Positions 42,501 to 62,750 of a DNA stretch of 64,000 nt are shown here, piece by piece. Both the position numbers and the translations under genes were made by a program. Origin of the DNA: Perna viridis. Its lineage: Eukaryota. Each line of letters begins with the position of its first letter. Position 1 is the stretch's first letter. Under the pieces are notes generated by a model. The model searched no databases. It was not told the origin of the DNA and was given only the letters and a program-made list of their open reading frames with translations. Location: NCBI GenBank assembly GCA_037379345.1, contig CM074513.1, positions 37,258,885-37,322,884 of the forward strand, read 5' to 3'.

Positions 42501-45500
42501 CATGGTCTTATCAAGCTATGGCCTACAAACCATTTTATTTTATTGGAAATTCACATGGAAGTGATACTATCTAAAGGTATTCTCAAAGACAATACATAAA
42601 AGAATTGGTCTCATTAGCAATTAAAATGTTTGACCAAATAATATTTTATTTTAAAAATTGACAACTTGGACACACCCAGTAATACATACATGTACATGTA
42701 AGCCTCTGATTCTCTATTAAGATTCCATGGAATTTTGTATTAAAGTTTTATGCAAAAAATTGTCCACTTACAGGGATAATTTGTCCACAAATGCCAACTG
42801 GTTCATGTCTGGTGTAACTGTAGAAATCTCCACCTGAAGTTTAAAGTTTCTTTTAAATTATGTTACATTTTTGTATAAAACAATTTTTGTACAAGAAGTC
42901 CAAACAACCCATCAGATTGGATAGAAATCAGTGAATATGAATCTACATATATTTACTGGCTTGAATCAGGAACACAGGAATGTTACTGGAGTAGCATTGG
43001 TAAAAACCAAATAACTAATTGATATAATGTGAAATAAACAGATATTGTTAGATGTTAAATTTCTTCAATGTGATACACAGCCTCTTAAAATCATGTAGCA
43101 GTAGTCTTTCCTAAAAGGGAATACCATGTCAAGTTTGCTGCCCAAGTGAAGTACTTCTTTAGCTCAGTAGACCATTATAGCCTAAGTTTGATCTCTGACT
43201 GGTACTGTTCAGATTTTAATTTATGAACAGTGTAAAGAGCTGTATTTCTATACAATAATTTGTACATTTACGTTGGTAATTTTTTTAGAATTAGTTTTAA
43301 AAATGATTTAAGTAACAAATTGCTTTTTACCGGTATTCCTGTACTAGTCATTTTGAAAAATCATCTAACTTACTTATTGGTATAACTTTTCCATGGTTTT
43401 TATCTGCCCAACCAGCATAATATCTAATAAAATGAAATTTGATTAAAAAACAACTTATATTCATTAACAATGAAAATCATAGGTAAACCATTGCAAAATG
43501 AAAATTAAAACGTCTTGGTTATGATGAATTTATCGGGTTGAATTCCAACTGCAATGGGAAATAACTTTGGGCTTTTCTCAATGGCTTTAAATATACAACA
43601 TTAAAGCAATAATCTGCACTTCAAAGGTTGATTTGGTAGAATTAAATGTCCTAGACGACTTCCCACTTGTTTTTATTTTTTTTTTAATATTTTAGTACTT
43701 TTCATTACATAATGCTAGCAGGCGTCAAATGTTTTTCAAAACATGATGCATATTTTTATATCTGATTTGTTCCTTTTTTAATACAAGTGCATCCATTTAA
43801 ACTATTTATAACTTTAAAATTTATGGATCATCAAGCATATGTGTGTTGGTGGCTTAATAACCACAGGGTAGTGATATGCGTCTAGTGCAGTAGTGATCGA
43901 ACGTCTCTAGATCGCTACTGACCCTGGCTAGTCTACGTGTAGACGAAAAGGGGAGCAGCATAAGCAGAAGCCTTCCTCTGCCAATACATAGCCTCTACAC
44001 TACCAAGACTCCTTCAATTTGCCTCCCCGAGGTAACACATGGTAACTTGGGTCTAGTACTCAAGGCTAACATGAAGGGGATCTCGGAGTAACAAGGACCC
44101 TAGAGGTGTAGAGTGCAGGCCCACCGGCGCGTGGAACACGCCCTGGCTCTCACCAACCTTGCCCCACCTATGGGTTAAATAGATCGCTGCCTTGTGATGG
44201 ACTGTTGAGTCAAAGGCTACGGGAGACAACCCAGACAGAAAACGATGGTCAGACTGGGATCAAACCTTTGAAAGGGAACTTGTCAAGGAGAGGAAACTCT
44301 GATGTAAAACCCGGCTAGAAAGGAGTCGTCACCCATGGTAGGGAACCTATCTAGGAGAGCTGACTCTGATACAAAAGCATGTGAGGGACTTGCTGACCAC
44401 CACATTAAAATAAAGCTGAAGCTAGAGGGCCAACCCCACACTAGTGGATACAAATGGTTACAGAAACGATTACAGTAAAAGTCATTCCTCGGACTCGTCA
44501 ACGACTAGAGAAAGAGGACCAAACCAAACATCGAGGACAGCAAATGACGCGAAAGCTGATGAAGTTGTTCTCACCAAAACAACCAACAACCATAGGTACT
44601 TGGAATGTTAGAACAATGTATCAAAGTGGCAAAAGCTTGCAAATTGCGAACAAAATGGATAGATACAATATCGAAATTCTAGGACTCAGCAAAGTAAGAT
44701 GGAATACAGCTGGAATGACAACACTATCTTCAGGTCATACGGTCATATTCTCAGGAAATCCAAATGAAGACGACATACATGACAAAGGCGTGGGATTCAT
44801 GCTTACAAAGAAAGCCAAGAAATCGCTTTTGGAGTGGAATCCAATATCTGCAAGAGTGATATCAGCTAGATTTGACACTCGATTCCAGAAAACAACATTT
44901 ATACAGGTGTATGCACCAACAAACACCGCAGACGAAGATGATAAAAATGACTTCTACAACTTATTACAATCAGTTGTTGATGCCGTTCCTAAAAGAGACA
45001 TCCTTATCATCTTAGGAGATCTGAATGCCAAAGTAGGTGATGACAGAGGAGGTAGAGAAAGGGAGATAGGACCACATGGAATAGGGCAAATGAATGAGAA
45101 CGGAGAAATGTTTGCTGACTTTTGCGCTATAAACAGTCTAGTAATTGGCGGTACTTGGTTTCCACATAAATCTTGTCATAAAACCACCTGGATTTCACCA
45201 TCTGGAGACACTGAAAACCAAATAGACCACATAACAATAAGCCGTCGATGGAGATCTTCATTACAAGATGTACGAACAAAACGTAGAGCAGACGCAGCAT
45301 CAGATCACCACCTTGTAATTGGAAAAATTAAACTCAAGCTTTTAACAATAAAGAAAAGAGAGACTACAAAAAGGAAGTTTAATGTTGAGAAGTTTAAAGA
45401 TCAGAAAGTGAAAGAAAACTTCCAAATTACACTCAGGAACAGATTTAGTACTTTATTAGATCTTGACAACGAAGAAATGAACAATGATATTGATGACATC

Positions 45501-48500
45501 TGGAACTCAACAAAGACAGCCATTCTAGAAGCATGCGAAGAAACAGTTGGTTTCATTCACGTGAAAAGAAAGAAATGGATGTCAGATCAAACATGGGATA
45601 CAATATCTGAAAGAAGGGAAATAAAAGAAAAGTTGATGAGTGCCAAAACCAGACAGCAAAAGAAAAACCTGCAAGACCTTTACAGTGCAAAAGACAGAGA
45701 AGTAAAGAAAAGCTGTAAAAGAGATAAAAGAAACCATGCTGAAAAGTTAGCAGTAGAAGCTGAAAACGCCTGCTTAAAAGGAGACATCAAAACATTGTAT
45801 AACATCACAAGACAACTCAGTGGAAAGATCTCTCAAAATGAAAATTTACCAGTCAAAGATAAAAACAACAATACCCTCACAAAGCTAGAAGATCAGCTTG
45901 ACAGATGGAAAGAACACTTTAGTGAGGTATTGAACAGACCACCACCAACAAATCCACCAATACTTGAAGAAGGTCCAACACTTAACATAGAGACTGACAA
46001 AATTACCGAAAATGAAGTAAGAAAAGCCCTAAAACATCTTAAGAATGGGAAAGCAGCGGGAATCGATGGCATACCACCAGAAGCCCTCAAGTCCATGAAT
46101 GACACTACCATTCAATATCTTCTTGGGCTATTAAACCAGATATGGGAAAAAGAAAAAATTCCAAAAGACTGGCAAAAGGCACTCTTGGTAAAACTACCTA
46201 AAAAGGGGGACAAATCCAATTGCAACAACTGGAGAGGAATAACTCTTTTGTCCATTCCTAGTAAAATCCTATGCAGTATAATCTTACAAAGAATGAAAGA
46301 AGAGATTGATAGCAAGCTGAGAGATGAACAAGCTAGATTTAGACAAGAACGATCATGTGTCAACCAGATTGCAACACTCAGAATAATTATTGAGCAAACG
46401 ATCGAATGGCAGTCATCCCTATATCTAAACTTTATTGACTTCCAGAAAGCATTTGACAGCATAGATCATCAGGTCTTGTGGAACATTCTAGGACACTATG
46501 GGATTCCTCCTAAGATTATTTCCATGATTAAGTTACTGTATGAAGAATTCTCTTGTCAGGTCATACATGCTGGTACACTGACGGATCCTTTCCCTGTAAC
46601 AACTGGCGTAAGGCAAGGATGCATTCTCTCTCCCCTTCTCTTTCTCATAGTCATCGACTGGATAGCAACAACAGCTTACAACGACCCTCATGGTATACAA
46701 TGGACACTAACATCTCGTCTAGAAGACCTCGAATTTGCAGACGACATATGCACACTATCGCATCGTCTTCAAGATTCCCAACACCAGGTCAACCATCTTG
46801 AAGAAACAGCTAAAAGAACAGGATTGTATATCAACACAGCCAAAACCAAAGCCATGAGAATCCAACAAAACCAGATGGATCCAATATTGGTAAATAACCA
46901 ACAGATAGAGAATGTAGATAAATTTACGTACCTTGGAAGTGTCATGAGTACAACTGGAGGCACTGACGAAGATGTACAAGCCAGAAAGATGAAAGCATTA
47001 CAGGCTTTTTCCATTCTAAAGCCAGTATGGAAAAGTAGAACACTGAGAACGACTACTAAGATCAAAATTTTCAACAGCAATGTTAAGTCTGTCCTGTTAT
47101 ATGGTTGCGAGACCATGAAATCTATACAAGTCTTTGTTAACAAGTGCCTAAGAAATATACTGAATATCAGATGGCCAGAAAAAATAACAAACAAGAAACT
47201 CTGGCAAAGAACAAAACAACAACCAATAGAAAACACCATTCGAACCCGAAAATGGAAATGGATTGGTCATACTTTAAGGAAGAACAATAAAAACACTACA
47301 AAGCAAGCTTTAGATTGGAATCCCCAAGGGCAAAGAAAAAGAGGAAGACCAAAGAACAATAAAAACACTACAAAGCAAGCTTTAGATTGGAATCCCCAAG
47401 GGCAAAGAAAAAGAGAAAGACCAAAGAACACCTGGAGGAGGGGTTTGAACTCTGAACTGAAGAGAGTAGGACTAACGTGGAAGAATTGTAACACCATCGC
47501 CCAAAACCGAAGCGAATGGAGAGAAACTGTAGTCGCCCTATGTCCACCCATGGACGAAATGGAATAAATCATATAAATCATCATCAAGCATATATCAAAT
47601 TCACTTGTGCGAACAAATATAAGTCTATTCATCTGTTTCAGTCACTTCCATGTTTATATATATATTAGTAACTTGATTTGCCATATTATTTTATATTTGG
47701 TACATCTAGTTTAAGAGTTAAAACAATGAGGGTGTACTCTGTAAGAGGACAAAATTATAAGCTAGAAAGGCTGTATCAATAGATATGTCTGACACTTATA
47801 TTAAGTTGGGTGTCCTGATTGTTGCTGAAAAACTTTGGTGGACTTGTTTGCTGGATGAGTAATCCAATATTTTTGGAAACTAATTAGACCCTCAGTAGTT
47901 TTAAGGTCATAGAATAAATTCCACTTTATTACTATTATGAGGACTTAGACCTCTATTACCTGTAACATTTGATGGAGAGTTCAAGATCAGCATTAAATGA
48001 CATCATATAGGGCTTCCCATTGTCAAGGGTTTCCAGTGACTGAAATATATACAAAATTTTATCAAATTCAATTCTATCAAATTACCAAGAGTTATTAAAT
48101 TCATATAAGTGCATAAAAAAGTTGTGATGACATTTGTGCAATAGCAATGTAAAAATAATATCTTACTACATTGTAAAATATGATGAAGGTGAAACCTGTA
48201 AACGCTCCTGAAGAAACTTTAATTAAAAAATAACTTTGATAATTTTTGTCAGCTCGATTTGATATATTATACTTATAACCTTCAAGTATGGTAAATTTTG
48301 TAATGATATATATTTATCCTAATGCATAATACTGATTGTCATGGTCTGATATGTCTTTGGGTCGAATTGTCCAGCACTGGTTAACATAATGGTTCTTATA
48401 ATTTGCGAAATTTCTTAAATGGTATCATTTATTGTATTTAGTTTCACTTCATTCTGTTTCATTTTGTATAGTTTAATTATGTTTTTATTAGGATCTGATT

Positions 48501-51500
48501 CATTTTATTGAATTGATTCGTGTCAATTCTTTCTTTTATCGATCATTTTTGTTTCATATTGGTTCGTTTTCATTTCGCAATTTTTATGACCCGAGAATTA
48601 TGGGTAATATTGATTACGTAATTTTCATATCTGGGCGCCATACTGCAGACTACAAAGCCAACCCTATCTTGGAAAAGCTATGATTCGATTTGTATTTAAT
48701 TATCGAAACTAGCAAATATTTTCCGACACTGGTTTGGCTCTCAATTGCAAATGAAGTATATGCAAATGAAGCTGCCATTAAGCTATTTTTCAGCTCCTGA
48801 AAATGCATGTACAAACCAGATATTGATGCTTTTTCTTGCCATAAGTATACAGAACCAAGTTGATAATACAACCATAAATGCTCCCTGCGAGAGCGTATAA
48901 ACATATTTTTCATCAAGTTTTAACAGTTCATGAACTTCTTCTACAAGATTGCAGAAATTACATGTAAAAAGGAGACAGGTACTAGACCATTTTATTCAAC
49001 AGGATGAAGAAATTATATGGCAACGTTATGAGATGATGATTACACAGAGCTATTTATCAAGTTAACCATCTCTTCTACTTACAGCCAGATATTGTCTGTC
49101 CCTCTCCATTAGGTCGGCCAACCGATTCAACAACACCCCTCTCTGAGCAGCATCCATTCGTCTCCATGGTGATCCAAGTCTAAAGGCCTCCTGTGCTGCA
49201 TTCACAGCCTTGTCAACATCAGCCTGTATATAAGGAATACTACTTCTGACTTAAGATTTATCCAATGAAAAGTAGGTAAAATTGGCCTGTACTATTTTCA
49301 TTTTGTGTAACATACAGTTCATAGTCAAATTTTTGTGTCCTGCTATTTTTGTAAGTCAAATTCTGCTTAATTATGATTTGTGAAGCAATTCCAGAAAAAC
49401 TTCAATGATATGGAACCTTGCGGTAAAATTTGGTACAGATCCTTACATTTCTACTCATATTTTTTGTTTGTTTGTTTTCTTTTTTTTGCACATTTTTTGT
49501 TATTGTGCTGGAAACAGGTATGTTTTTTTTGGGGGGGGCTCTTTCAAACATTTAGCATTATCACCAAACAAATCAATTCCAGTCTGACTTTCATGGTATG
49601 TGATACAGTTTCTGAAATATCCATATATCTATAATCAAGTTATTGTACAGAAACCAAATGTCTACAAATGATACAGATGCAACTGGAATGACAATGCTGT
49701 AACATTATACAATTGCTAATTTTATGCAGTCATGTTTTTTTTTATTTTCCCCATTTTGCTCATTCTTACTAAATACTTTAACACCATAGAACAAAATACC
49801 TTATCACCTTCTGCCACCTCACAGATAGGTTCTCCTGTACATGGGTTCAATGTCTGGAAAGTTTTACCACTTACAGAGTCTACAAACTCATTGTTAATGA
49901 AAATCTAAAAAGAAAACAATTCATGATTTTATTTTGGAAGGGGAATTACAGTGTGTGTTTTCAGCCACCTACCCACAAATATCAATAAATCATCAAATAA
50001 GACTATCACAATTCAATGAAAAAAATGTTATTTATCACTCATGTTTTCCTTTTAGTACATGCTGCTACTGATTTGAGTCTTTTTCAAATAATGTGCCAGC
50101 CTACTATATTTTCATGTCTGTCAGTGACTCATTGAGAGTCTATTTTGGTATTTTACTATTTTGGTATTTTACTATTTTGGATTCAGGTTATATGCTGAAG
50201 CATTTGTTGCAATTTAGGTCCACTGATGTCAGCCTTCAATTATATTGTCAGTTTACCACTATATAAGTGTAAGAAGCCTGGAAAATGATGTTCTAATTGA
50301 GAGGTATATTATTAGAATGCTCGTATAGTGTAAGTTTTATCAGATTTTTTTCATTCAAAAATTAATCCTAATCTCAAAACAGAGATCTCCCTTGATAGAC
50401 TGCAGGGATACTTTTGATAATTTTACCAATATTGAGGAATGATGAAATTTAAAGTCCCTACCCAACATTATGTATGAAATGTTGATCATTTCTTGAAAGT
50501 GCTGAGTCATAGCCAAAAGATTGTACAAGCTATAAATCTGATTTAATCATATGGCCTTGAACTATTTTTTATGCTCTGATAATTATCCAACTGAGCTTGT
50601 TTTTTTTCTATGGGCTAGTAAACTTGTAGGAAAAGCAAAATTCACATCTAACTGATTGAACCTAAGCATCGATGCACATCAGTGCATATCCATGACATGA
50701 GATGACTGATAGACAACTTAAATACTTAACAATCATATGTAATAGGATACTGCTGGGTTTTTCAAAATAAATATAAAGCCCATATTCACAATCAGTTATG
50801 TTCTTACATAACACATTGTATTGATAACCATGATAGCTAAAAGAAATAAAGAAACTCCACTGGATATTTGGGAGAAGAGTTGGTACAAGTTTTCCTATGA
50901 ATAAATCTACACTATTAACTATTCATTGTTCATATGCTATAATAATACAGACTGATAGTGAAGAAATATTTGATAGATATGAAGTTAAGAAAATGTTTTA
51001 CTGTGAGACTTGTAGCAAGGCTATATATGGTATTTTCCAGACATTGTTATAAGACTTATCTTATTCACCTGTAATCGATTCAGTTACTGAGTAATTATGA
51101 AAAGCATGTATGAACTTGTTGGCTTGTATTCATCCTATCTAAAGCTTAGATAAGTTTAGAAACAGTTACTGACATTAAAAAAATACAAGGTTAAGGTTAC
51201 CTTTGAAATAATTTAACATGCAATTAAACTAGAAGTTCTAGGTAAACTGGATCGTTACTAATTTAAAGCAAAATATAAATAGTGTATTATACACTTCTAT
51301 TTAAATAAGTAAATGCTGTGGTTCTTAACTATGATTCAGAAAATAAAGATGAGTGGATAAAAATTACACTATCATATACTGATATTCAGTGGGTTGAAAT
51401 TGTTTATTGTGTTGAGTATCATTATTGAGTCTGGCTAGAAAAAAAATTCTTCGGCCAACTAATCCAACATTGAAATTAATAACTACAAACTCCCAACAAA

Positions 51501-53182
51501 AAAACACCTGGTCACATAAAACATTTAAACGCTTGCTAGCAAATCACAATACCACAGGAGACTTTTTGCACTGTTACAGGATACTGCATCACAATTTTGT
51601 TCTTTTTAAAGGTACAGAAATACAGTGGCTGGCCAAAAGTGTTGGTGCACTAATTATTGGCAAAGATGCAGTCAAAAAGATTGGCCAGGAAAATGCACTG
51701 AAAAAATACTAATATGACATAGTGTTATCCAAGAATAAAATTTAACAAAAGTTAAATAGTAATTTCCCCTTTTGTTAACTTTTATCATCTGCTAAAAATG
51801 GCGCTAAAACGTAAAGATTTGTCACCCAATCAACTCCCTTGTAGCAGGACAAAACATTATTGGAATGCTGAGAATTGGTCATGGACTCAAGGAAGAGTTT
51901 TAGTGACGAGAGTACAATTGAAGTTGGGACCGATGGAAAAGTGTATGTTTGGAGGCAATCTTACGAAGATTTTCATTCTGACTATACAAGGATTGTTCCA
52001 TTAGAAATCCTCTAAATTGTTTTTGGTATGTATTTGGTACTGTGAGGGTCGTACCTTGACTCAAATATAAAGTGTGAGAAATATATCAATATATTAGATG
52101 AAAATTTATGGCCAGTGATTATCACACATTTTCCTAATTCACCATGGATATTACAAGAAGATAATGCACCACACCAGGTTTGGAAACAGACATCTGACTG
52201 GAAAACAGAAAATGAAATATTACCTTGCCATAACCATCTTAAGTTTGTTTGTTTGTATGGATTTAACATCCGAGCAGCAATATTTCAGCTATATTCAGAC
52301 GATGAACATGAAATTGATGATAAAATGAACATGAAATGATGATGAAATGAAAAAGGAATGGGACACAAGGACAATGGGATCGACAAATTTTGATTGCCAC
52401 TGGAAATAGGGAGAGGTGGGTAGGGTCGGGCAATTTAGCCTCCTGTGGCGGAGCCCTATGGTTCCTACTCCGGGAGAATACCGCAGTAGGGTTCTTAAAC
52501 GTGCGAGGAACATGGCATCTTTCCCAACACGGTGCACCACTATGGTTTGCGGTCAGGTTTTCCGTATTATAGCCTGACAACCCCAGCATGTAACACACCA
52601 GGGGTACCCCATTCCACCACCTGGGGCACACATCCCAGTTGCTCTGTGGGCAGACAAGCTTAGCGCTGCTGCAGGCCTATTCTTTTCACACCCGGACCTG
52701 CACTGGGCCATAACCATCTTAAGAGTCCTGACCTTAATGTAATAAAAAATGTGTGGAAAGTCTGATCTGTAAAATTTCTGATCCCACAAAATTTGCCATT
52801 CCAGTCTCAGAAAACACCTTCTTACATCAGGGGAAGGATAAAATCATAATTTTAAATTAACCATGCAGCATATATCATATCTTTTGTGGGTCGGGCAGTC
52901 TGCAACCACAGCCCGCTCGGACAGATTCACGGACAATCTTTTATATATTTACAATACCTAAGTTCAAGCACGTACATTATGCAGAGGCGTATAAAAAGGC
53001 AATAGAATGCAAATAACAGAAATATATGCACAGTGGTCAAGTTCCAATTATTGCCTTACCCGAGCGTAGTGAATATCCGGATTTGTAATAGGCTCTGGAA
53101 CGCTTGACATGCATGCTGATTGTATTTTTACTGCATTATTTATCAGCCTCCTTGAAAATGTCCTCCGTAATAGAGCTGCCAT
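36539..53182 (-). CDS. ALDH2: Mitochondrial aldehyde dehydrogenase, 14 coding exons, ~520 aa: 53060-53182, 49800-49904, 49083-49223, 47960-48039, 43374-43423, 42772-42833, 41948-42076, 41228-41341, 40896-40998, 39451-39635, 38764-38928, 37873-38030, 37312-37426, 36539-36571
   Basis: The exons sum to 1563 nt with GT-AG boundaries. Motifs: [34 protein letters not shown] (catalytic Glu), [11 protein letters not shown] (catalytic Cys triplet as in ALDH2), [31 protein letters not shown] and C-terminal QKNS*. Confidence 0.96.
37404..37602 (-). repeat. 38-bp tandem repeat, 5+ copies, unit = 3' splice site plus first ~23 nt of ALDH2 exon 13
   Basis: Minus-strand unit ..tttaag|ggt(t/g)aactgtta(t/g)gatgtatttga; acceptor AGs at plus-strand 37427, 37465, 37503, 37541 and 37579. 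Confidence 0.95.
40311..40570. repeat. 43-bp near-perfect minisatellite x6 in ALDH2 intron 9
   Basis: gtagttgaaataataacctatcgggtaccagatcatataaact repeated six times, with one substitution in the last copy. Confidence 0.97.
43841..44079 (+). ncRNA. HDV-like self-cleaving ribozyme at the RTE 5' end
   Basis: P1 gtgtgtt (43841-47)/aacacat (44034-40) with G1.U wobble; P3 gcc/ggt around L3 tccccga; GG 44041-42 for P1.1; P4 cttgggt/actcaag; J4/2 gCtaa (C44066); P2 ctccttca/tgaagggg. Confidence 0.85.
44454..47567 (+). CDS. RTE ORF: APE endonuclease plus reverse transcriptase (1037 aa, open but carrying damaging substitutions)
   Basis: [28 protein letters not shown] and SDH (APE); [38 protein letters not shown] and FTYLGS (RT); WIGHTLR..RKRGRPK.TW (RTE C-terminus). 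Confidence 0.95.
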   Translation: MVTETITVKVIPRTRQRLEKEDQTKHRGQQMTRKLMKLFSPKQPTTIGTWNVRTMYQSGKSLQIANKMDRYNIEILGLSKVRWNTAGMTTLSSGHTVIFSGNPNEDDIHDKGVGFMLTKKAKKSLLEWNPISARVISARFDTRFQKTTFIQVYAPTNTADEDDKNDFYNLLQSVVDAVPKRDILIILGDLNAKVGDDRGGREREIGPHGIGQMNENGEMFADFCAINSLVIGGTWFPHKSCHKTTWISPSGDTENQIDHITISRRWRSSLQDVRTKRRADAASDHHLVIGKIKLKLLTIKKRETTKRKFNVEKFKDQKVKENFQITLRNRFSTLLDLDNEEMNNDIDDIWNSTKTAILEACEETVGFIHVKRKKWMSDQTWDTISERREIKEKLMSAKTRQQKKNLQDLYSAKDREVKKSCKRDKRNHAEKLAVEAENACLKGDIKTLYNITRQLSGKISQNENLPVKDKNNNTLTKLEDQLDRWKEHFSEVLNRPPPTNPPILEEGPTLNIETDKITENEVRKALKHLKNGKAAGIDGIPPEALKSMNDTTIQYLLGLLNQIWEKEKIPKDWQKALLVKLPKKGDKSNCNNWRGITLLSIPSKILCSIILQRMKEEIDSKLRDEQARFRQERSCVNQIATLRIIIEQTIEWQSSLYLNFIDFQKAFDSIDHQVLWNILGHYGIPPKIISMIKLLYEEFSCQVIHAGTLTDPFPVTTGVRQGCILSPLLFLIVIDWIATTAYNDPHGIQWTLTSRLEDLEFADDICTLSHRLQDSQHQVNHLEETAKRTGLYINTAKTKAMRIQQNQMDPILVNNQQIENVDKFTYLGSVMSTTGGTDEDVQARKMKALQAFSILKPVWKSRTLRTTTKIKIFNSNVKSVLLYGCETMKSIQVFVNKCLRNILNIRWPEKITNKKLWQRTKQQPIENTIRTRKWKWIGHTLRKNNKNTTKQALDWNPQGQRKRGRPKNNKNTTKQALDWNPQGQRKRERPKNTWRRGLNSELKRVGLTWKNCNTIAQNRSEWRETVVALCPPMDEME
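51623..52860 (+). mobile_element. Decayed, internally deleted Tc1-family transposon (copy 1); right end approximate
   Basis: TA|CAGTGGCTGGCCAAAAGT left TIR; transposase fragments [39 protein letters not shown]...ILQEDNAP and [11 protein letters not shown] (cf. SPDLNPIEN.W). Right TIR not found. Confidence 0.85.
52244..52706 (-). mobile_element. SINE-like non-autonomous retroelement nested in the Tc1 transposase (copy 1)
   Basis: 17-bp TSD gccataaccatcttaag at 52227-52243 and 52707-52723; minus-strand tail ..gctgaaatattgctgctcggatgttaaatccata(caaa)n; GC-richer than the flanks. Confidence 0.88.
53060..53182 (-). CDS. ALDH2: ALDH2 exon 1, proximal copy: mitochondrial presequence [41 protein letters not shown]
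   Basis: ATG in context gaaATGG; Arg-rich N-terminus without acidic residues; VPEP..NPDI.Y resembles the mature ALDH1/2 N-terminus; phase-0 donor GTAAGG fits exon 2. Too short for the ORF track. Confidence 0.9.
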
Positions 53183-53274
53183 TTCTTTCGTTTTAAATCA
53201 AATAAAATTACGAAGAACCTGAGAACATACCAGCTGTGAAAAAAGTTCAAGGTCGATTGCTCACCGCTTGCGTA

Positions 53275-53390
53275 TTTTTTGTTTTGTTTTGTTTTGTTTT
53301 TGGTTTACTGTTGTTCACTTTGTTTTGATTTTCTGATTTAAATTTTTTTTTGTTTTTTTTTTGGTTTTTTTTGTTTTGTTTTGTTTTTTC
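53275..53390. repeat. (GTTTT)n / poly-T low-complexity tract just upstream of ALDH2 exon 1 (duplicate at ~58549-58665)
   Basis: Direct reading. Confidence 0.85.
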
Positions 53391-53725
53391 AAATGCGTAA
53401 TTATTCATTCAAATCTGCCTGCTCTTAGGAGATAATCAACATTGAAAATCCAGTAGATTCTATTGTATTTGAGCGTCATTTACAGAGTTATCTCCCTTAA
53501 TTTTGAAATCTACAGTGCATTCTAAATAATTTTTATCTCCTAAGAGCACGGGTTATATGAAAAACCACATGTTTTTTTCTGTTTACTATGACATTTCAGA
53601 CAAAATATCAAAAATAAAAATATGTAGGCTTTTTACCCATGAATCACATTTTGCATGATCCTTAGTGCTACTTAACATTCCGTAATATCGATTTTTTTAG
53701 CAATTAGCCAAGGGGGGAAAGTTAG

Positions 53726-55195
53726 ATTAGTTTAAACATATTTTATTTGCAAATAAACAAATTTGGATCAGACACGAGTTATTCCAACTCACATGGTCTT
53801 CTCCATACATTGAATATAACACACAATAAAATATTGAACAAAAACGACAAGTGTAGTGTACAGAAATTGATAATTTAAATTTTTACAATAGTAGGTCCAA
53901 ATCACAAAAAAAAGAAAAAAAATCATAATTGGTGTAAAACGTTAATAAGTGATAAAAAATAAGAAAAATGCCAAAGGTATTTTGATCAGTCTAAACAGAA
54001 TCGACCTGAGTGCTGAATAAAATGTTGTATTGTTTTTAAATTTGTCATCATTGCTGGTGTTATCATTTATTGCGCTACCAAATAAAATCATTGTTATTCG
54101 ATCTTCACCAGTATCCGGAAGATTGTCTATATATAAATTGCGTTGTTCTACATACAAAGGATATTCTAGAGAGAAATGAGTACTATCCTCAATAGGCCAG
54201 CCACAGGTGCAAAACCCACTCTGAACAGATCAGCTTTGAGTGTGCTACTCATGTGACGTAGTCTTGTGTGCAAAATATTAAGCTTTCGAGTCCCATGATA
54301 ATAATATGAAGGTGGTTTGAACACGAGGTTCTGATTTCTCAGTAATTGTTTGAAATTGTCTAAGGTTGGCACCTGTCTCAATCGTAGGTCTAAGCGATCC
54401 CACAATCGTATAGCAGATGAAAAGAATGACTTCGAAAAAGTTTCAATACGAGTTTGAGGATAAACATAGTTGGCCTCATTTCTTAAATTATATTGATTGG
54501 TTGTGCCTACAGTAGGTGTTAAACAGTCTTTTATATATGCTGGTATCTTATTATTGTGTACTCTATGGAATAGACACAGTTTACGACTTCGTCGACAATC
54601 TGCTAATGTCTCCCAACAAGTTTCAAAATATAAAGATTCAATACTGGCATTTCTTGGAAGACCGGTTACAAGTCTGCCAGCGTCATTTTGTATTTTATCC
54701 AATTTATTTGCACATTCTGCAGAACATCCATCCCATAGTTCACAAGAATATTCCAGTAATGGTAAAATATAAGTATGATATATCTTATTCAAATTTTATC
54801 TGTTCAGAGTGAACTTGAGCTTTCGTAGAACACCTAACTGTCTTGTTGCATTCAGACACATATAATCAATATGGGTTGACCACTTACAATCCGAAGAAAA
54901 TACTACTCCAAAATGCTTGTGAGTATCAACCATCTCTACTCATTGATAATTAGATTTAATATTGATTGGTTGTTGTATTTCTTGGTTTGTAAAATGTACA
55001 GCCTTGATTTTGGCAGGGTTGAAGTCTACCCTCCAGTCTTAAGACCATTTTTGTAGTTTATCAAGGTCAGAGTTAATGGTATGCTCTATTGTAAATGATT
55101 CTGTGACGAACAGCCTAGTGAGGTATCGTCAGCAAATAATCTAGTAAAACTATTCAAATCATCAGATATATCATTTATAAAATAAAAAATAGTAA
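53726..55195 (-). mobile_element. 3' third of the CR1-type LINE, generated by the tandem duplication
   Basis: Near-identical to 59000-60469; truncated at the duplication junction inside the RT domain (..LLFF). Confidence 0.9.
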
Positions 55196-56898
55196 TTCAT
55201 GATTTTATTTTGGAAGGGGAATTACAGTGTGTGTTTTCAGCCACCTACCCACAAATATCAATAAATCATCAAATAAGACTATCACAATTCAATGAAAAAA
55301 ATGTTATTTATCACTCATGTTTTCCTTTTAGTACATGCTGCTACTGATTTGAGTCTTTTTCAAATAATGTGCCAGCCTACTATATTTTCATGTCTGTCAG
55401 TGACTCATTGAGAGTCTATTTTGGTATTTTACTATTTTGGTATTTTACTATTTTGGATTCAGGTTATATGCTGAAGCATTTGTTGCAATTTAGGTCCACT
55501 GATGTCAGCCTTCAATTATATTGTCAGTTTACCACTATATAAGTGTAAGAAGCCTGGAAAATGATGTTCTAATTGAGAGGTATATTATTAGAATGCTCGT
55601 ATAGTGTAAGTTTTATCAGATTTTTTTCATTCAAAAATTAATCCTAATCTCAAAACAGAGATCTCCCTTGATAGACTGCAGGGATACTTTTGATAATTTT
55701 ACCAATATTGAGGAATGATGAAATTTAAAGTCCCTACCCAACATTATGTATGAAATGTTGATCATTTCTTGAAAGTGCTGAGTCATAGCCAAAAGATTGT
55801 ACAAGCTATAAATCTGATTTAATCATATGGCCTTGAACTATTTTTTATGCTCTGATAATTATCCAACTGAGCTTGTTTTTTTTCTATGGGCTAGTAAACT
55901 TGTAGGAAAAGCAAAATTCACATCTAACTGATTGAACCTAAGCATCGATGCACATCAGTGCATATCCATGACATGAGATGACTGATAGACAACTTAAATA
56001 CTTAACAATCATATGTAATAGGATACTGCTGGGTTTTTCAAAATAAATATAAAGCCCATATTCACAATCAGTTATGTTCTTACATAACACATTGTATTGA
56101 TAACCATGATAGCTAAAAGAAATAAAGAAACTCCACTGGATATTTGGGAGAAGAGTTGGTACAAGTTTTCCTATGAATAAATCTACACTATTAACTATTC
56201 ATTGTTCATATGCTATAATAATACAGACTGATAGTGAAGAAATATTTGATAGATATGAAGTTAAGAAAATGTTTTACTGTGAGACTTGTAGCAAGGCTAT
56301 ATATGGTATTTTCCAGACATTGTTATAAGACTTATCTTATTCACCTGTAATCGATTCAGTTACTGAGTAATTATGAAAAGCATGTATGAACTTGTTGGCT
56401 TGTATTCATCCTATCTAAAGCTTAGATAAGTTTAGAAACAGTTACTGACATTAAAAAAATACAAGGTTAAGGTTACCTTTGAAATAATTTAACATGCAAT
56501 TAAACTAGAAGTTCTAGGTAAACTGGATCGTTACTAATTTAAAGCAAAATATAAATAGTGTATTATACACTTCTATTTAAATAAGTAAATGCTGTGGTTC
56601 TTAACTATGATTCAGAAAATAAAGATGAGTGGATAAAAATTACACTATCATATACTGATATTCAGTGGGTTGAAATTGTTTATTGTGTTGAGTATCATTA
56701 TTGAGTCTGGCTAGAAAAAAAATTCTTCGGCCAACTAATCCAACATTGAAATTAATAACTACAAACTCCCAACAAAAAAACACCTGGTCACATAAAACAT
56801 TTAAACGCTTGCTAGCAAATCACAATACCACAGGAGACTTTTTGCACTGTTACAGGATACTGCATCACAATTTTGTTCTTTTTAAAGGTACAGAAATA

Positions 56899-58134
56899 CA
56901 GTGGCTGGCCAAAAGTGTTGGTGCACTAATTATTGGCAAAGATGCAGTCAAAAAGATTGGCCAGGAAAATGCACTGAAAAAATACTAATATGACATAGTG
57001 TTATCCAAGAATAAAATTTAACAAAAGTTAAATAGTAATTTCCCCTTTTGTTAACTTTTATCATCTGCCAAAAATGGCGCTAAAACGTAAAGATTTGTCA
57101 CCCAATCAACTCCCTTGTAGCAGGACAAAACATTATTGGAATGCTGAGAATTGGTCATGGACTCAAGGAAGAGTTTTAGTGACGAGAGTACAATTGAAGT
57201 TGGGACCGATGGAAAAGTGTATGTTTGGAGGCAATCTTACGAAGATTTTCATTCTGACTATACAAGGATTGTTCCATTAGAAATCCTCTAAATTGTTTTT
57301 GGTATGTATTTGGTACTGTGAGGGTCGTACCTTGACTCAAATATAAAGTGTGAGAAATATATTAATATATTAGATGAAAATTTATGGCCAGTGATTATCA
57401 CACATTTTCCTAATTCACCATGGATATTACAAGAAGATAATGCACCACACCAGGTTTGGAAACAGACTTCTGACTGGAAAACAGAAAATGAAATATTACC
57501 TTGCCATAACCATCTTAAGTTTGTTTGTTTGTATGGATTTAACATCCGAGCAGCAATATTTCAGCTATATTCAGACGATGAACATGAAATTGATGATAAA
57601 ATGAACATGAAATGATGATGAAATGAAAAAGGAATGGGACACAAGGACAATGGGATCGACAAATTTTGATTGCCACTGGAAATAGGGAGAGGTGGGTAGG
57701 GTCGGGCAATTTAGCCTCCTGTGGCGGAGCCCTATGGTTCTTACTCCGGGAGAATACCGCAGTAGGGTTCTTTAACGTGCGAGGAACATGGCATCTTTCC
57801 CAACACGGTGCACCACTATGGTTTGCGGTCAGGTTTTCCGTATTATAGCCTGACAACCCCAGCATGTAACACACCAGGGGTACCCCATTCCACCACCTGG
57901 GGCACACATCCCAGTTGCTCTGTGGGCAGACAAGCTTAGCGCTGCTGCAGGCCTATTCTTTTCACACCCGGACCTGCACTGGGCCATAACCATCTTAAGA
58001 GTCCTGACCTTAATGTAATAAAAAATGTGGAAAGTCTGATCTGTAAAATTTCTGATCCCACAAAATTTGCCATTCCAGTCTCAGAAAACACCTTCTTACA
58101 TCAGGGGAAGGATAAAATCATAATTTTAAATTAA
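56899..58134 (+). mobile_element. Decayed Tc1-family transposon (duplicate copy)
   Basis: Same sequence as 51623-52860 within the second duplication unit. Confidence 0.85.
57520..57982 (-). mobile_element. SINE-like element (duplicate copy)
   Basis: Same element and TSD at +5276. Confidence 0.88.
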
Positions 58135-58333
58135 CCATGCAGCATATATCATATCTTTTGTGGGTCGGGCAGTCTGCAACCACAGCCCGCTCGGACAGAT
58201 TCACGGACAATCTTTTATATATTTACAATACCTAAGTTCAAGCACGTACATTATGCAGAGGCGTATAAAAAGGCAATAGAATGCAAATAACAGAAATATA
58301 TGCACAGTGGTCAAGTTCCAATTATTGCCTTAC

Positions 58334-58456
58334 CCGAGCGTAGTGAATATCCGGATTTGTAATAGGCTCTGGAACGCTTGACATGCATGCTGATTGTATT
58401 TTTACTGCATTATTTATCAGCCTCCTTGAAAATGTCCTCCGTAATAGAGCTGCCAT
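58334..58456 (-). CDS. ALDH2: ALDH2 exon 1, distal duplicate copy
   Basis: Same sequence as 53060-53182, including ATG and GTAAGG donor, inside the second unit of the tandem duplication. Confidence 0.85.
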
Positions 58457-58999
58457 TTCTTTCGTTTTAAATCAAATAAAATTACGAAGAACCTGAGAAC
58501 ATACCAGCTGTGAAAAAAGTTCAAGGTCGATTGCTCACCGCTTGCGTATTTTTTGTTTTGTTTTGTTTTGTTTTTGGTTTACTGTTGTTCACTTTGTTTT
58601 GATTTTCTGATTTAAATTTTTTTTTGTTTTTTTTTTGGTTTTTTTTGTTTTGTTTTGTTTTTTTCAAATGCGTAATTATTCATTCAAATCTGCCTGCTCT
58701 TAGGAGATAATCAACATTGAAAATCCAGTAGATTCTATTGTATATGAGCGTCATTTACAGAGTTATCTCCCTTAATTTTGAAATCTACAGTGCATTCTAA
58801 ATAATTTTTATCTCCTAAGAGCACGGGTTATATGAAAAACCACATGTTTTTTTCTGTTTACTATGACATTTCAGACAAAATATCAAAAATAAAAATATGT
58901 AGGCTTTTTACCCATGAATCACATTTTGCATGATCCTTAGTGCTACTTAACATTCCGTAATATCGAATTTTTTAGCAATTAGCCAAGGGGGGAAAGTTA

Positions 59000-61900
59000 G
59001 ATTAGTTTAAACATATTTTATTTGCAAATAAACAAATTTGGATCAGACACGAGTTATTCCAACTCACATGGTCTTCTCCATACATTGAATATAACACACA
59101 ATAAAATATTGAACAAAAACGACAAGTGTAGTGTACAGAAATTGATAATTTAAATTTTTACAATAGTAGGTCCAAATCACAAAAAAAAGAAAAAAATCAT
59201 AATTGGTGTAAAACGTTAATAAGTGATAAAAAATAAGAAAAATGCCAAAGGTATTTTGATCAGTCTAAACAGAATCGACCTGAGTGCTGAATAAAATGTT
59301 GTATTGTTTTTAAATTTGTCATCATTGCTGGTGTTATCATTTATTGCGCTACCAAATAAAATCATTGTTATTCGATCTTCACCAGTATCCGGAAGATTGT
59401 CTATATATAAATTGCGTTGTTCTACATACAAAGGATATTCTAGAGAGAAATGAGTACTATCCTCAATAGGCCAGCCACAGGTGCAAAACCCACTCTGAAC
59501 AGATCAGCTTTGAGTGTGCTACTCATGTGACGTAGTCTTGTGTGCAAAATATTAAGCTTTCGAGTCCCATGATAATAATATGAAGGTGGTTTGAACACGA
59601 GGTTCTGATTTCTCAGTAATTGTTTGAAATTGTCTAAGGTTGGCACCTGTCTCAATCGTAGGTCTAAGCGATCCCACAATCGTATAGCAGATGAAAAGAA
59701 TGACTTCGAAAAAGTTTCAATACGAGTTTGAGGATAAACATAGTTGGCCTCATTTCTTAAATTATATTGATTGGTTGTGCCTACAGTAGGTGTTAAACAG
59801 TCTTTTATATATGCTGGTATCTTATTATTGTGTACTCTATGGAATAGACACAGTTTACGACTTCGTCGACAATCTGCTAATGTCTCCCAACAAGTTTCAA
59901 AATATAAAGATTCAATACTGGCATTTCTTGGAAGACCGGTTACAAGTCTGCCAGCGTCATTTTGTATTTTATCCAATTTATTTGCACATTCTGCAGAACA
60001 TCCATCCCACAGTTCACAAGAATATTCCAGTAATGGTAAAATATAAGTATGATATATCTTATTCAAATTTTATCTGTTCAGAGTGAACTTGAGCTTTCGT
60101 AGAACACCTAACTGTCTTGTTGCATTCAGACACATATAATCAATATGGGTTGACCACTTACAATCCGAAGAAAATACTACTCCAAAATGCTTGTGAGTAT
60201 CAACCATCTCTACTCATTGATAATTAGATTTAATATTGATTGGTTGTTGTATTTCTTGGTTTGTAAAATGTACAGCCTTGATTTTGGCAGGGTTGAAGTC
60301 TACCCTCCAGTCTTAAGACCATTTTTGTAGTTTATCAAGGTCAGAGTTAATGGTATGCTCTATTGTAAATGATTCTGTGACGAACAGCCTAGTGAGGTAT
60401 CGTCAGCAAATAATCTAGTAAAACTATTCAAATCATCAGATATATCATTTATAAAATAAAAAATAGTAAGGGTCCAGGAACAGAATCTTGCGGAACTCCC
60501 GCGTTGATAAAAGACTCAGATGACATAGAATTGTTAACAAAGACCTTCTGTCGTCTTTTATATAAATAGCTTTGAAGCCATAAAAGTACGTTATGGTTAA
60601 TTCCATATGATCTAAGCTTTATTATTAACCCCTTATGCCATACCTTATCAAATGCCTTCGACATATCACAGAACACTACACAAGTATTATATCTTGTTTA
60701 GAGCTTCACATATCTTATGATAAATCTCAGTCAGTTGATGGACTGTGCTGTGCCCAGCCATGAAACCTGACTGAAATTTATATAACAATGAGTTTGAATT
60801 AGATAGTTGTAAAGGTACTTATATACTACTCTCTAAAAAACCTTTCCGATGCAGCTTAATAACGCAATCGGTCGATAATTAGAAGTCAGGGACTTCTCCC
60901 CCTTTTTAAAGGAAGGCGTAACTGAGGCAAGCTTCCAAAACTCCGGAAACACCTCTGTCGATAATGATTTATTAAAGAGTATATGTAATGGGACCGATAT
61001 ACTATCAGCAGTGTACTTGAGCATATGGTGACTAATACAATCATGTCCTGACGCCTTACCCATTTTCAGGACTTTTAGCACATCTAGAACGTTTTTCTAT
61101 TAACTATAATGTCGTTTAGTGATTAGTCAGTTCTAGGTGCAAATTCTGGAGTTGCTCTATTTGCATCTTTATTTGTAGAAATCGAACAAAAATATCGGTT
61201 AAGGAGGTCAGACCTGGATTCGTCATCAACGACAAGTTCGTTTCTAGTTGAATCGTGAAGTGCTGGTATATGGGTAAATGATCCCGAGCCTTTCATGATC
61301 TTCATAACTAAACCCCAGAATGTCTTTGGGCTAGAACTGGCATTAAGCATGTCATCTACGCTTAAGAAAATTGTTCCTTAGCGTATTTGATCATGTTAGT
61401 GACCTTATCACGTTGCCTTTTGTAATTTTGAATAGCAATATCAGTTTTGCTATTTATCGCCTTGTCGTGTAATCGGTCATGTTTTTTATCTCACTACGCA
61501 GTTCAGAATTAAACCACTGTTTATCGTCTGGGCGAATAGTTACCTCCTTTGACGGTATATGTCGTTTATATATCTCAATAATTTTGTTGGAGAATTCAGT
61601 ACACATCAGATCGATGTTGTTACCCATATTATTGATATATTCCACCCAATCGATCGAGTTGATAATATCGTTAATCGCATTAAAATGCTTGTATAACCAC
61701 ACCGCTTGGTGCATGAATTATTAAGTCTTTGATGTATCTTCAAAAGCAATTGTGTAGCTTGATGGTCACTGATAGATCTGTCAACATCAACGACTTCATC
61801 AAGCTGCAAATCACAGTTAGGAGATACAATAACTGGGTCTAGAAGAGTTCCCTGCACATTAACATGATAGCGCGTTGCCTCATTTATATAATTAGGAATG

Positions 61901-62750
61901 TTATAGATCTCCATGATGTCCTTCAATATGTTCTTATTCTCTGATAATAAGTTCACGTTAAGGTCACCAGTAATAACGATATTTGGCGTGTAATTCAAGG
62001 CCTGTTCAATTGATATTTGGAAGTGTTCCCAAAAGGGATTTGTAGTTCCCTGTGTTCGATAGACAGCACGTAGTATCAACTTAAAACGAGGAAAGCAAAC
62101 TTCAAGCCATATAAGCTCTCTGTTAGGAAATTCTAGATCATCACGATGAATTACTGTAAGCTCATCCGCAATATACACTAAGACACCGCCCCCATGTCAA
62201 TTTCGATCTTTGCGGATAAGGTTGTTAGAAAAACCGGTCATATGAATATCATCAAATGGGATTCTTCCATCTAAGTGGGTTTCAGTAATACATAAGATCG
62301 ATGCTCCATGAACTAGGCTTCCAACGTAAGAAAGCTTGTGCCTTAAGCTCCTAATATCAATATGCATGATCGCGAGATGGTTATCAACATGGGGACCCGG
62401 ATTTTCACTGACGTCACTGACGTCATTGCTGAGCAGTAAAAGAATCACTAGTATAAGTATGTAACAATGTTCTTAGTGAATGACTCAAAAATGTATCTGT
62501 GATATGCAAAGAGAAGTGATTTTAAGGCTAAAATTAGGATTCCTAGAAACAAAAATGGTATATTGTATGTCCTGTATCTGTATATATACACAGACCTCGT
62601 CCGGACACGAGAATAGACTTTGTCATAAAACAAGTCTATCGCTGAGCGATATAAGTTTATATCACTACCCGTAATCAAACATGAAAGCATGTAGTCGCTC
62701 CACGTCATAGACTGTCATGTGGCAAAGAACAACGCAAGCAGATTAAAAAA
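59000..62750 (-). mobile_element. Near full-length, decayed CR1/L2-group LINE (APE + RT; frameshifts and stops); 5' end approximate
   Basis: Fragments: CITETHL, DRN..GGGV, TGDLNVN, TLLDPV, ISDH (APE); NYRPIALLSCIGKVF, FCDMSKAFDKVWH.GL, GVPQDSVPGPLLF, LFADDTS, HKHFGV (RT); 3' end aataaaatatgtttaaact. Confidence 0.92.

Follow-up and report, generated by a model that had tools for sequence, protein, structure and literature searches.

An HDV-like ribozyme fold at the 5' tip of an RTE-type retrotransposon family and of its sister families in one animal genome

The window, a 64,000-nt stretch of genomic DNA analysed as a whole, contains a retrotransposon that lies antisense in an intron of an ALDH2-like gene. 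This host gene, recognized by the Pfam Aldedh profile, extends over ~49.9 kb to 37.3 kb in minus-strand orientation. The top PDB matches of one of its exons are to mitochondrial ALDH, with 97 bits as against 71 for ALDH1A1. Splicing of the intron (43423->47960) is attested by 81 and 127 spliced reads in the stranded RNA-seq runs X23 and X24. At 1-33440 of the window, on the plus strand and thus in tail-to-tail arrangement with ALDH, there appear to be numerous exons, with repeats that are Calx-beta-like and an end that is 7-TM-like; we take them to resemble ADGRV1/VLGR1. The intron and the element inserted in it comprise the following features:

43424-47959, minus strand: ALDH2-like intron holding the element in antisense (4,536 nt, GT..AG)
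43827-43840, plus strand: left TSD, 14 bp, an exact match to 47580-47593
43841-47579, plus strand: retrotransposon of 3,739 nt (~3.74 kb), bounded by the two exact 14-bp repeats
44445-47567, plus strand: single ORF with APE endonuclease and RT, 1040 codons from stop to stop
47568-47579, plus strand: 3' tail of short AATC/ATC-type microsatellite units, without poly-A
47580-47593, plus strand: right TSD, 14 bp, an exact match to 43827-43840

No stretch longer than these 14 bp is repeated exactly in the two flanks of the element, and the left one ends at 43840; hence, as an earlier note on this DNA had claimed, G43841 (G1) directly follows the left TSD. Two private changes mark the ORF of this copy: it has lost 21 nt in frame near 47113, and 72 nt are duplicated in tandem at 47345-47416. 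RTE elements are described as having a single ORF of ~1,020 aa with an APE endonuclease and an RT (PMC5850137), and a 3' tail of short tandem repeats rather than poly-A together with TSDs of ~8-20 bp (PMC5850137, PMC6007223). The element shows the same anatomy: a single APE and RT ORF near this size, a short tandem-repeat tail instead of poly-A, and TSDs that are mostly 9-18 bp across its copies. The nearest Atlas clusters have an identical APE+RT architecture, with one of them named CFDP2-like, and an RT search of PDB returned only LINE-1 ORF2p, R2 and one unnamed RT. From the anatomy of ORF, tail and TSDs, the element likely represents a young RTE-type family of non-LTR retrotransposons.

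The first 243 nt of the element (43841-44083) are confirmed, at the level of predicted pairing, as a complete HDV-like nested double pseudoknot with helices P1, P1.1, P2, P3 and P4. Its parts, all on the plus strand, are:

43841-43847: P1 5' strand, pairing 7/7 with 44034-44040; G43841 is G1, the first base of the element
43848-44005: J1/2, ~160 nt, structured
43868-43874/43998-44004: closing helix P1.2 of J1/2
43887-43898/43910-43921: J1/2 hairpin of 11-12 bp
43924-43928/43980-43984: J1/2 inner helix
44006-44020: P2 5' strand, with its core at 44009-44016/44072-44079 and 44017-44020 poorly paired
44021-44023/44031-44033: P3, with one G.U
44024-44030: L3, with equivalents of U20 (44024), C21/C22 (44025-44026) and G25 (44029)
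44034-44040: P1 3' strand; T44040 is private to this copy, the family base being C
C44025 and C44026 with G44042 and G44041: P1.1, its GG being 44041-44042
44046-44052/44058-44064: P4 hairpin of 7 bp, with one G.U
44065-44069: J4/2, holding the candidate general acid C44066
44070-44083: P2 3' strand, pairing with the 44006-44020 strand

Every helix named in the earlier note, which had described a full nested pseudoknot, could thus be located, as could L3 and the J4/2 with C44066; the latter residue is C in 30/30 aligned copies of the family (family A). The predicted cleavage site, 43840/43841, is the 5' boundary of the element. U44024 and G44029 match the L3 residues U20 and G25 that form the reverse wobble of HDV; both are important in HDV-like ribozymes (PMC13635239, PMC3774820), and C75 is the catalytic cytosine of HDV chemistry (PMC13635239). 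Some details of the earlier description need amendment. The G.U at the first position of P1 is present in the window copy but is private to it: 44040 is C in 29/30 aligned copies, making the family pair G-C. The imperfect pairing of P2 next to P3 is a family-wide trait (44017-44020 vs 44070-44071, with 44017-44020 and 44070 invariant in 30/30). P2 itself is longer than first described, continuing with AGA/UCU beyond a single bulged A to reach 11 bp. The J1/2 folds with an MFE of -51 kcal/mol (z -1.98). Another private change, G43984A, breaks one covarying pair of its inner helix and, by prediction, lets the P1 5' strand mispair more readily.

Searches of the 723-Mb animal genome with a family-A 5' query gave 138 candidates and 40 scored copies that are 96-100% identical. 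Of the latter, 25 start at G1 and 7 at +2, so that 32/40 begin at base 1-2; 3 more start between +4 and +8, and the other 5 between +21 and +71. For comparison, we took 60 copies, by list order, from 100 listed matches to a 3' word that lacked a coincident 5'-end copy: their starts are scattered from +296 to +3695. Exact 16-mers from the 5' end, core and 3' end occur 32, 42 and 131 times in the genome; therefore, most copies bearing the core also reach the tip. The TSD junctions of 34 near-full copies fall into several types: in 10 the last base of the left TSD is the one before G1, in 3 the TSD overlaps G1 by microhomology, and 6 have 1-9 extra bases between the TSD and G1; the others start at +2 (6) or at +4/+6 (2), are without a TSD (6) or have a broken 3' end (1). 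Upstream DNA common to any two family-A copies never exceeded 5 nt, bar one segmental duplicate pair. Thus, the proposed coincidence of the ribozyme site with the element's 5' terminus extends to the family as a whole. That most 5'-reaching copies start at G1 is likely because of a ribozyme cut just before it. Covariation within family A was uninformative, its copies being 96-99% identical with mostly scattered single-copy changes.

Pattern and DNA searches recovered four further RTE-type families with an HDV-like core in the same genome: B (22 loci), C (5, later 30), D (13 aligned including E) and E (1). In family B, 17/22 loci start at their own G1. Compared with family A, its P1 has C-G instead of U-A at pair 6 and its P2 is perfect, with a duplex energy of -17.6 kcal/mol vs -13.0 in family A. 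In most copies of the family (L070-L099), the central pair of P3 is C.A. The same A.C mismatch is found in P1 of three family-B copies (L092, L098 and L099) that still start at G1, a point against the ribozyme setting their start. The base preceding G1 is T in 17/24 family-A copies (p 0.0002 vs 33.5%) and is more often A in family B, which may reflect target preference or non-templated addition. One locus (L089:1483-1643, minus strand) shows the family-B core and P1 with a wholly different, shorter J1/2 that appears to be closed by its own 8-of-9-bp helix; only the C-terminal part of the ORF follows, and the locus is possibly a non-autonomous derivative.

Family C (L214-L243, e.g. L081:1344-1563, plus strand) differs in P1 sequence on both strands and keeps 6 or 7 of the 7 pairs in the four copies parsed. 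A 4-5-bp hairpin stands between its P2 and P3 5' strands, and in one subfamily both arms of this hairpin are lengthened. The P2 pair flanking the hairpin, which could be parsed in 21 of 30 loci, is paired in 19/21 and uses four pair types (U-A 10, A-U 5, G-C 3, G.U 1, mismatch 2). Its P3 often has a U.U at the base, and the J4/2 catalytic C, as read from the alignment, is present in 29/30 loci. Family D (L105-L115, L119) is older and decayed; it mostly has GU replacing the GG of P1.1, leaving one C-G and a C.U.

To gauge the pairing across the five families, we aligned 17 representatives and found that 20/37 pairs change on both sides. Shuffles gave a mean of 11.5 such pairs, with 0/500 reaching 20, and slid controls gave 2-7; the 17 rows being related, the shuffle counts are not probabilities, and the alignment includes the decayed family D and columns in which MAFFT misplaces P1.2 and parts of family C. 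Pairing is preserved in 93.5% of the cells of P1, 91.1% of P2, 80.4% of P3 and 91.6% of P4, the last of which has two-sided changes at 6/7 pairs. P1.1 is paired in only 70.6% because GU stands for GG in family D. The 46% for P1.2 comes from misregistered MAFFT columns; a free-register duplex test forms the closing J1/2 duplex in 17/17 representatives. RNAalifold recovers P2 and P4 unprompted. Additionally, covariation between families A, B and C is seen in the inner helix of J1/2, and the P1 5' strand is separated from its 3' partner by 150-190 nt in all five. We tentatively read these families as a natural RTE-borne series of HDV-like ribozymes in one genome, in which the cut site would be kept at the tip and the edge of the core remodelled: a mismatched P2 top (A), a fully paired P2 together with a C.A pair in P3 (B), a three-way junction formed by an inserted hairpin (C) and a one-pair P1.1 (D). 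On the same tentative footing, the family-C hairpin might be an active, undescribed architecture; a full-text literature search returned no description of such a P2/P3 hairpin.

In the two stranded RNA-seq runs, the body of the element has a sense depth of 2.5-19. At many of the private sites of the window copy all sense reads show the family allele, and its 72-nt duplication is skipped by 9-10 reads per run. Other copies are thus transcribed, with no sign of this for the window copy; the sampled animals may also lack the insertion. The left junction is covered by a contig (43701-43868) of DNA run X1, placing the insertion in that sample, from which the assembly itself may derive. Over 43821-44030, which takes in the first 190 nt of the element, there is no sense coverage, nor is there any pile-up at G1 (25 and 53 reads placed in the two runs), so that no cut end is seen. 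As the element is antisense, the ALDH pre-mRNA bears only the complement of the ribozyme and could not be cut by it. The spliced reads uphold this geometry, from which the earlier note had argued that the pre-mRNA is spared, but selection for the antisense orientation finds no support. Host sense was approximated by the TA+GC skew of the flanks, calibrated on two genes only (15/17 host-sense chunks positive). By this crude, low-power proxy, the suggested depletion of sense-oriented intronic copies did not appear: the 34 full-length copies, taken without the duplicate L055 and the five copies whose starts lie between +21 and +71, divide into 18 sense-like and 16 antisense-like, and 60 truncated copies into 24 positive and 36 negative (Mann-Whitney p 0.76, Fisher p 0.28 vs full-length). 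Lying antisense to ALDH2, with its own sense reads absent and with P1 and J1/2 predicted to be weakened by its private changes, the window copy is likely a passenger.

HDV-like ribozymes are borne by RTE, Baggins, R2 and L1Tc elements, which they release from co-transcripts (PMC6765202, PMC7761336, PMC3774820); in RTE, R4 and L1Tc elements the site of ribozyme cleavage coincides with their 5' junction, and R2 elements, which are likewise cleaved there, have a fixed start with small additions or losses (PMC3774820). The 5'-terminal fold of the present family probably serves in the same way to free the element RNA from host read-through transcripts before G1. A source copy would be read through from a host promoter and the ribozyme would fold in the transcript. 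By analogy with HDV biochemistry, a Mg2+-dependent cut would then occur before G1, with the candidate C44066 as general acid. The structured J1/2 and long P2 may aid the cut by drawing P1 and P2 together; a structured J1/2 with an extended P2 accelerates cleavage of drz-Agam-2-1 (PMC4908430). The freed RNA would be translated and then reverse transcribed at a new nick up to the cut end, and TSD formation would set G1 beside the left TSD, with some copies gaining non-templated bases or losing one. That the window copy came from such a self-cleaved transcript is an inference, if a well-supported one.

The 5' end might alternatively be set by an internal promoter at G1, leaving the fold with another role or with no role; L1Tc has such a dual system, bearing a promoter and a ribozyme in the same 77 nt (PMC3383444). 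Family sense RNA is indeed found along the body, and the missing common upstream DNA suits either mechanism. However, such a promoter leaves unexplained why the first 7 nt covary, through P1, with a distant strand in five families, and no extra cap-derived G is seen at -1, where G occurs in 1/24 family-A copies. Hence, we regard a promoter in place of the ribozyme as unlikely, though the two could coexist.

Somewhat less probable still is that the family-A ribozyme is a slow, weakened relic, and that the sharp end comes from a halt of the RT at the folded domain or from the start of the source RNA. The P2-top mismatch in 30/30 copies and the zero sense coverage of the first 190 nt would fit this, as would the competing P3 extension in the MFE structure: nested folding favours this mispaired extension in family A, and likewise in family B. 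Under ViennaRNA, the P1 pair probability was zero for all three sequences tried, in A and B alike, because the P1/P2 pseudoknots cannot be modelled. Against a relic, the catalytic-core positions are all intact in family A, related ribozymes tolerate a bulge at this place (the drz-agam-2-2 consensus appears bulged and family C hairpinned), and the starts gather at G1 and not within helices.

The fold also has to be set against the background of accidental matches. An HDV-topology descriptor, composed for this test after the sequence was seen, gave one match in the window, with 43841 as the sole P1 partner within 300 nt. Among 2,211 versions of the window shuffled by dinucleotides, which amount to 283 Mb with both strands counted, it matched in full once, and none of 20,000 shuffled versions of the 610-nt 5' UTR matched. 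The best Rfam match, drz-agam-2-2 (RF01788; 18.9 bits, E 0.038), falls short of the gathering score of 38, and the sequence is not a member of that family. A loose core pattern occurs 31 times forward in the genome and 65 times when read backwards as a control, and its counts were left unused because they lie below this control; 25/30 of its loci have an RTE-type ORF match close by. Two of these 30 loci (L079 and L086) and 4/6 matches to a second pattern (L100-L103) were rejected, the pairings or the ORF being absent. Notwithstanding the sub-threshold Rfam score and the excess of backward matches, a chance resemblance to the HDV consensus is refuted by the covariation across families and the position of the fold, as well as by its rarity in shuffled DNA and the neighbouring RTE-type ORFs, and retains a negligible probability.

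The ribozyme drz-Agam-2 heads a mosquito RTE. HDV-like ribozymes at RTE 5' ends were reportedly described by Ruminski et al. in 2011 (as cited in PMC6765202, PMC3774820 and PMC7761336). Like the drz-Agam-2 type (RF01788), the fold under study is a nested double pseudoknot with GCUAA in J4/2, a J1/2 that is long and structured, a P2 that reaches 11-12 bp by extension and a predicted cut at the first base of the element. It differs in the J1/2 sequence, the mismatched P2 top and the G-C first pair of its family. R2 and L1Tc ribozymes similarly set the 5' end (PMC3774820, PMC3383444), and the junctions of Drosophila R2 likewise show small deletions and non-templated additions; by contrast, the present element is of the APE type, inserts in a dispersed, TSD-flanked rather than rDNA-specific manner, and encodes the whole of P1. 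The CPEB3 ribozyme (PMC4836649) is also an HDV fold inside a host intron, but it is read in the host pre-mRNA, whereas ours is antisense and part of a mobile element with ~40 near-identical 5' copies. We saw no sign of domestication of the window ribozyme. The Perere-3 RTEs of Schistosoma (PMC8501958) too carry a 5' ribozyme on an APE-type, TSD-making element, but theirs are twister variants, a class different from HDV-like. The GU P1.1 of family D resembles the weak P1.1 of the CPEB3 and C. briggsae ribozymes. Literature searches returned nothing relevant on a mollusc or metazoan-wide report of such ribozymes. Overall, the ribozyme-headed RTE is of a published kind, and the family is a new, well-supported and ordinary member of it.

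As such, it offers a clean example of a known mechanism, in which a promoter-poor retrotransposon sets its own 5' end by a ribozyme, and changes no model. The ~40 near-identical full-length copies with TSDs, along with the four variant sister families, are a ready set for studying the tolerance of HDV-like ribozymes to damage in P2, P3 and P1.1, and also suit asking if intronic copies in sense orientation are costly to the host. Elsewhere in the window, an apparent tandem duplication of ~5.28 kb has identical ORF fragments at both of its places (about 50000-55300 and 55300-60100), and next to it lies an APE+RT LINE of a different type, on the minus strand at ~59400-62500.
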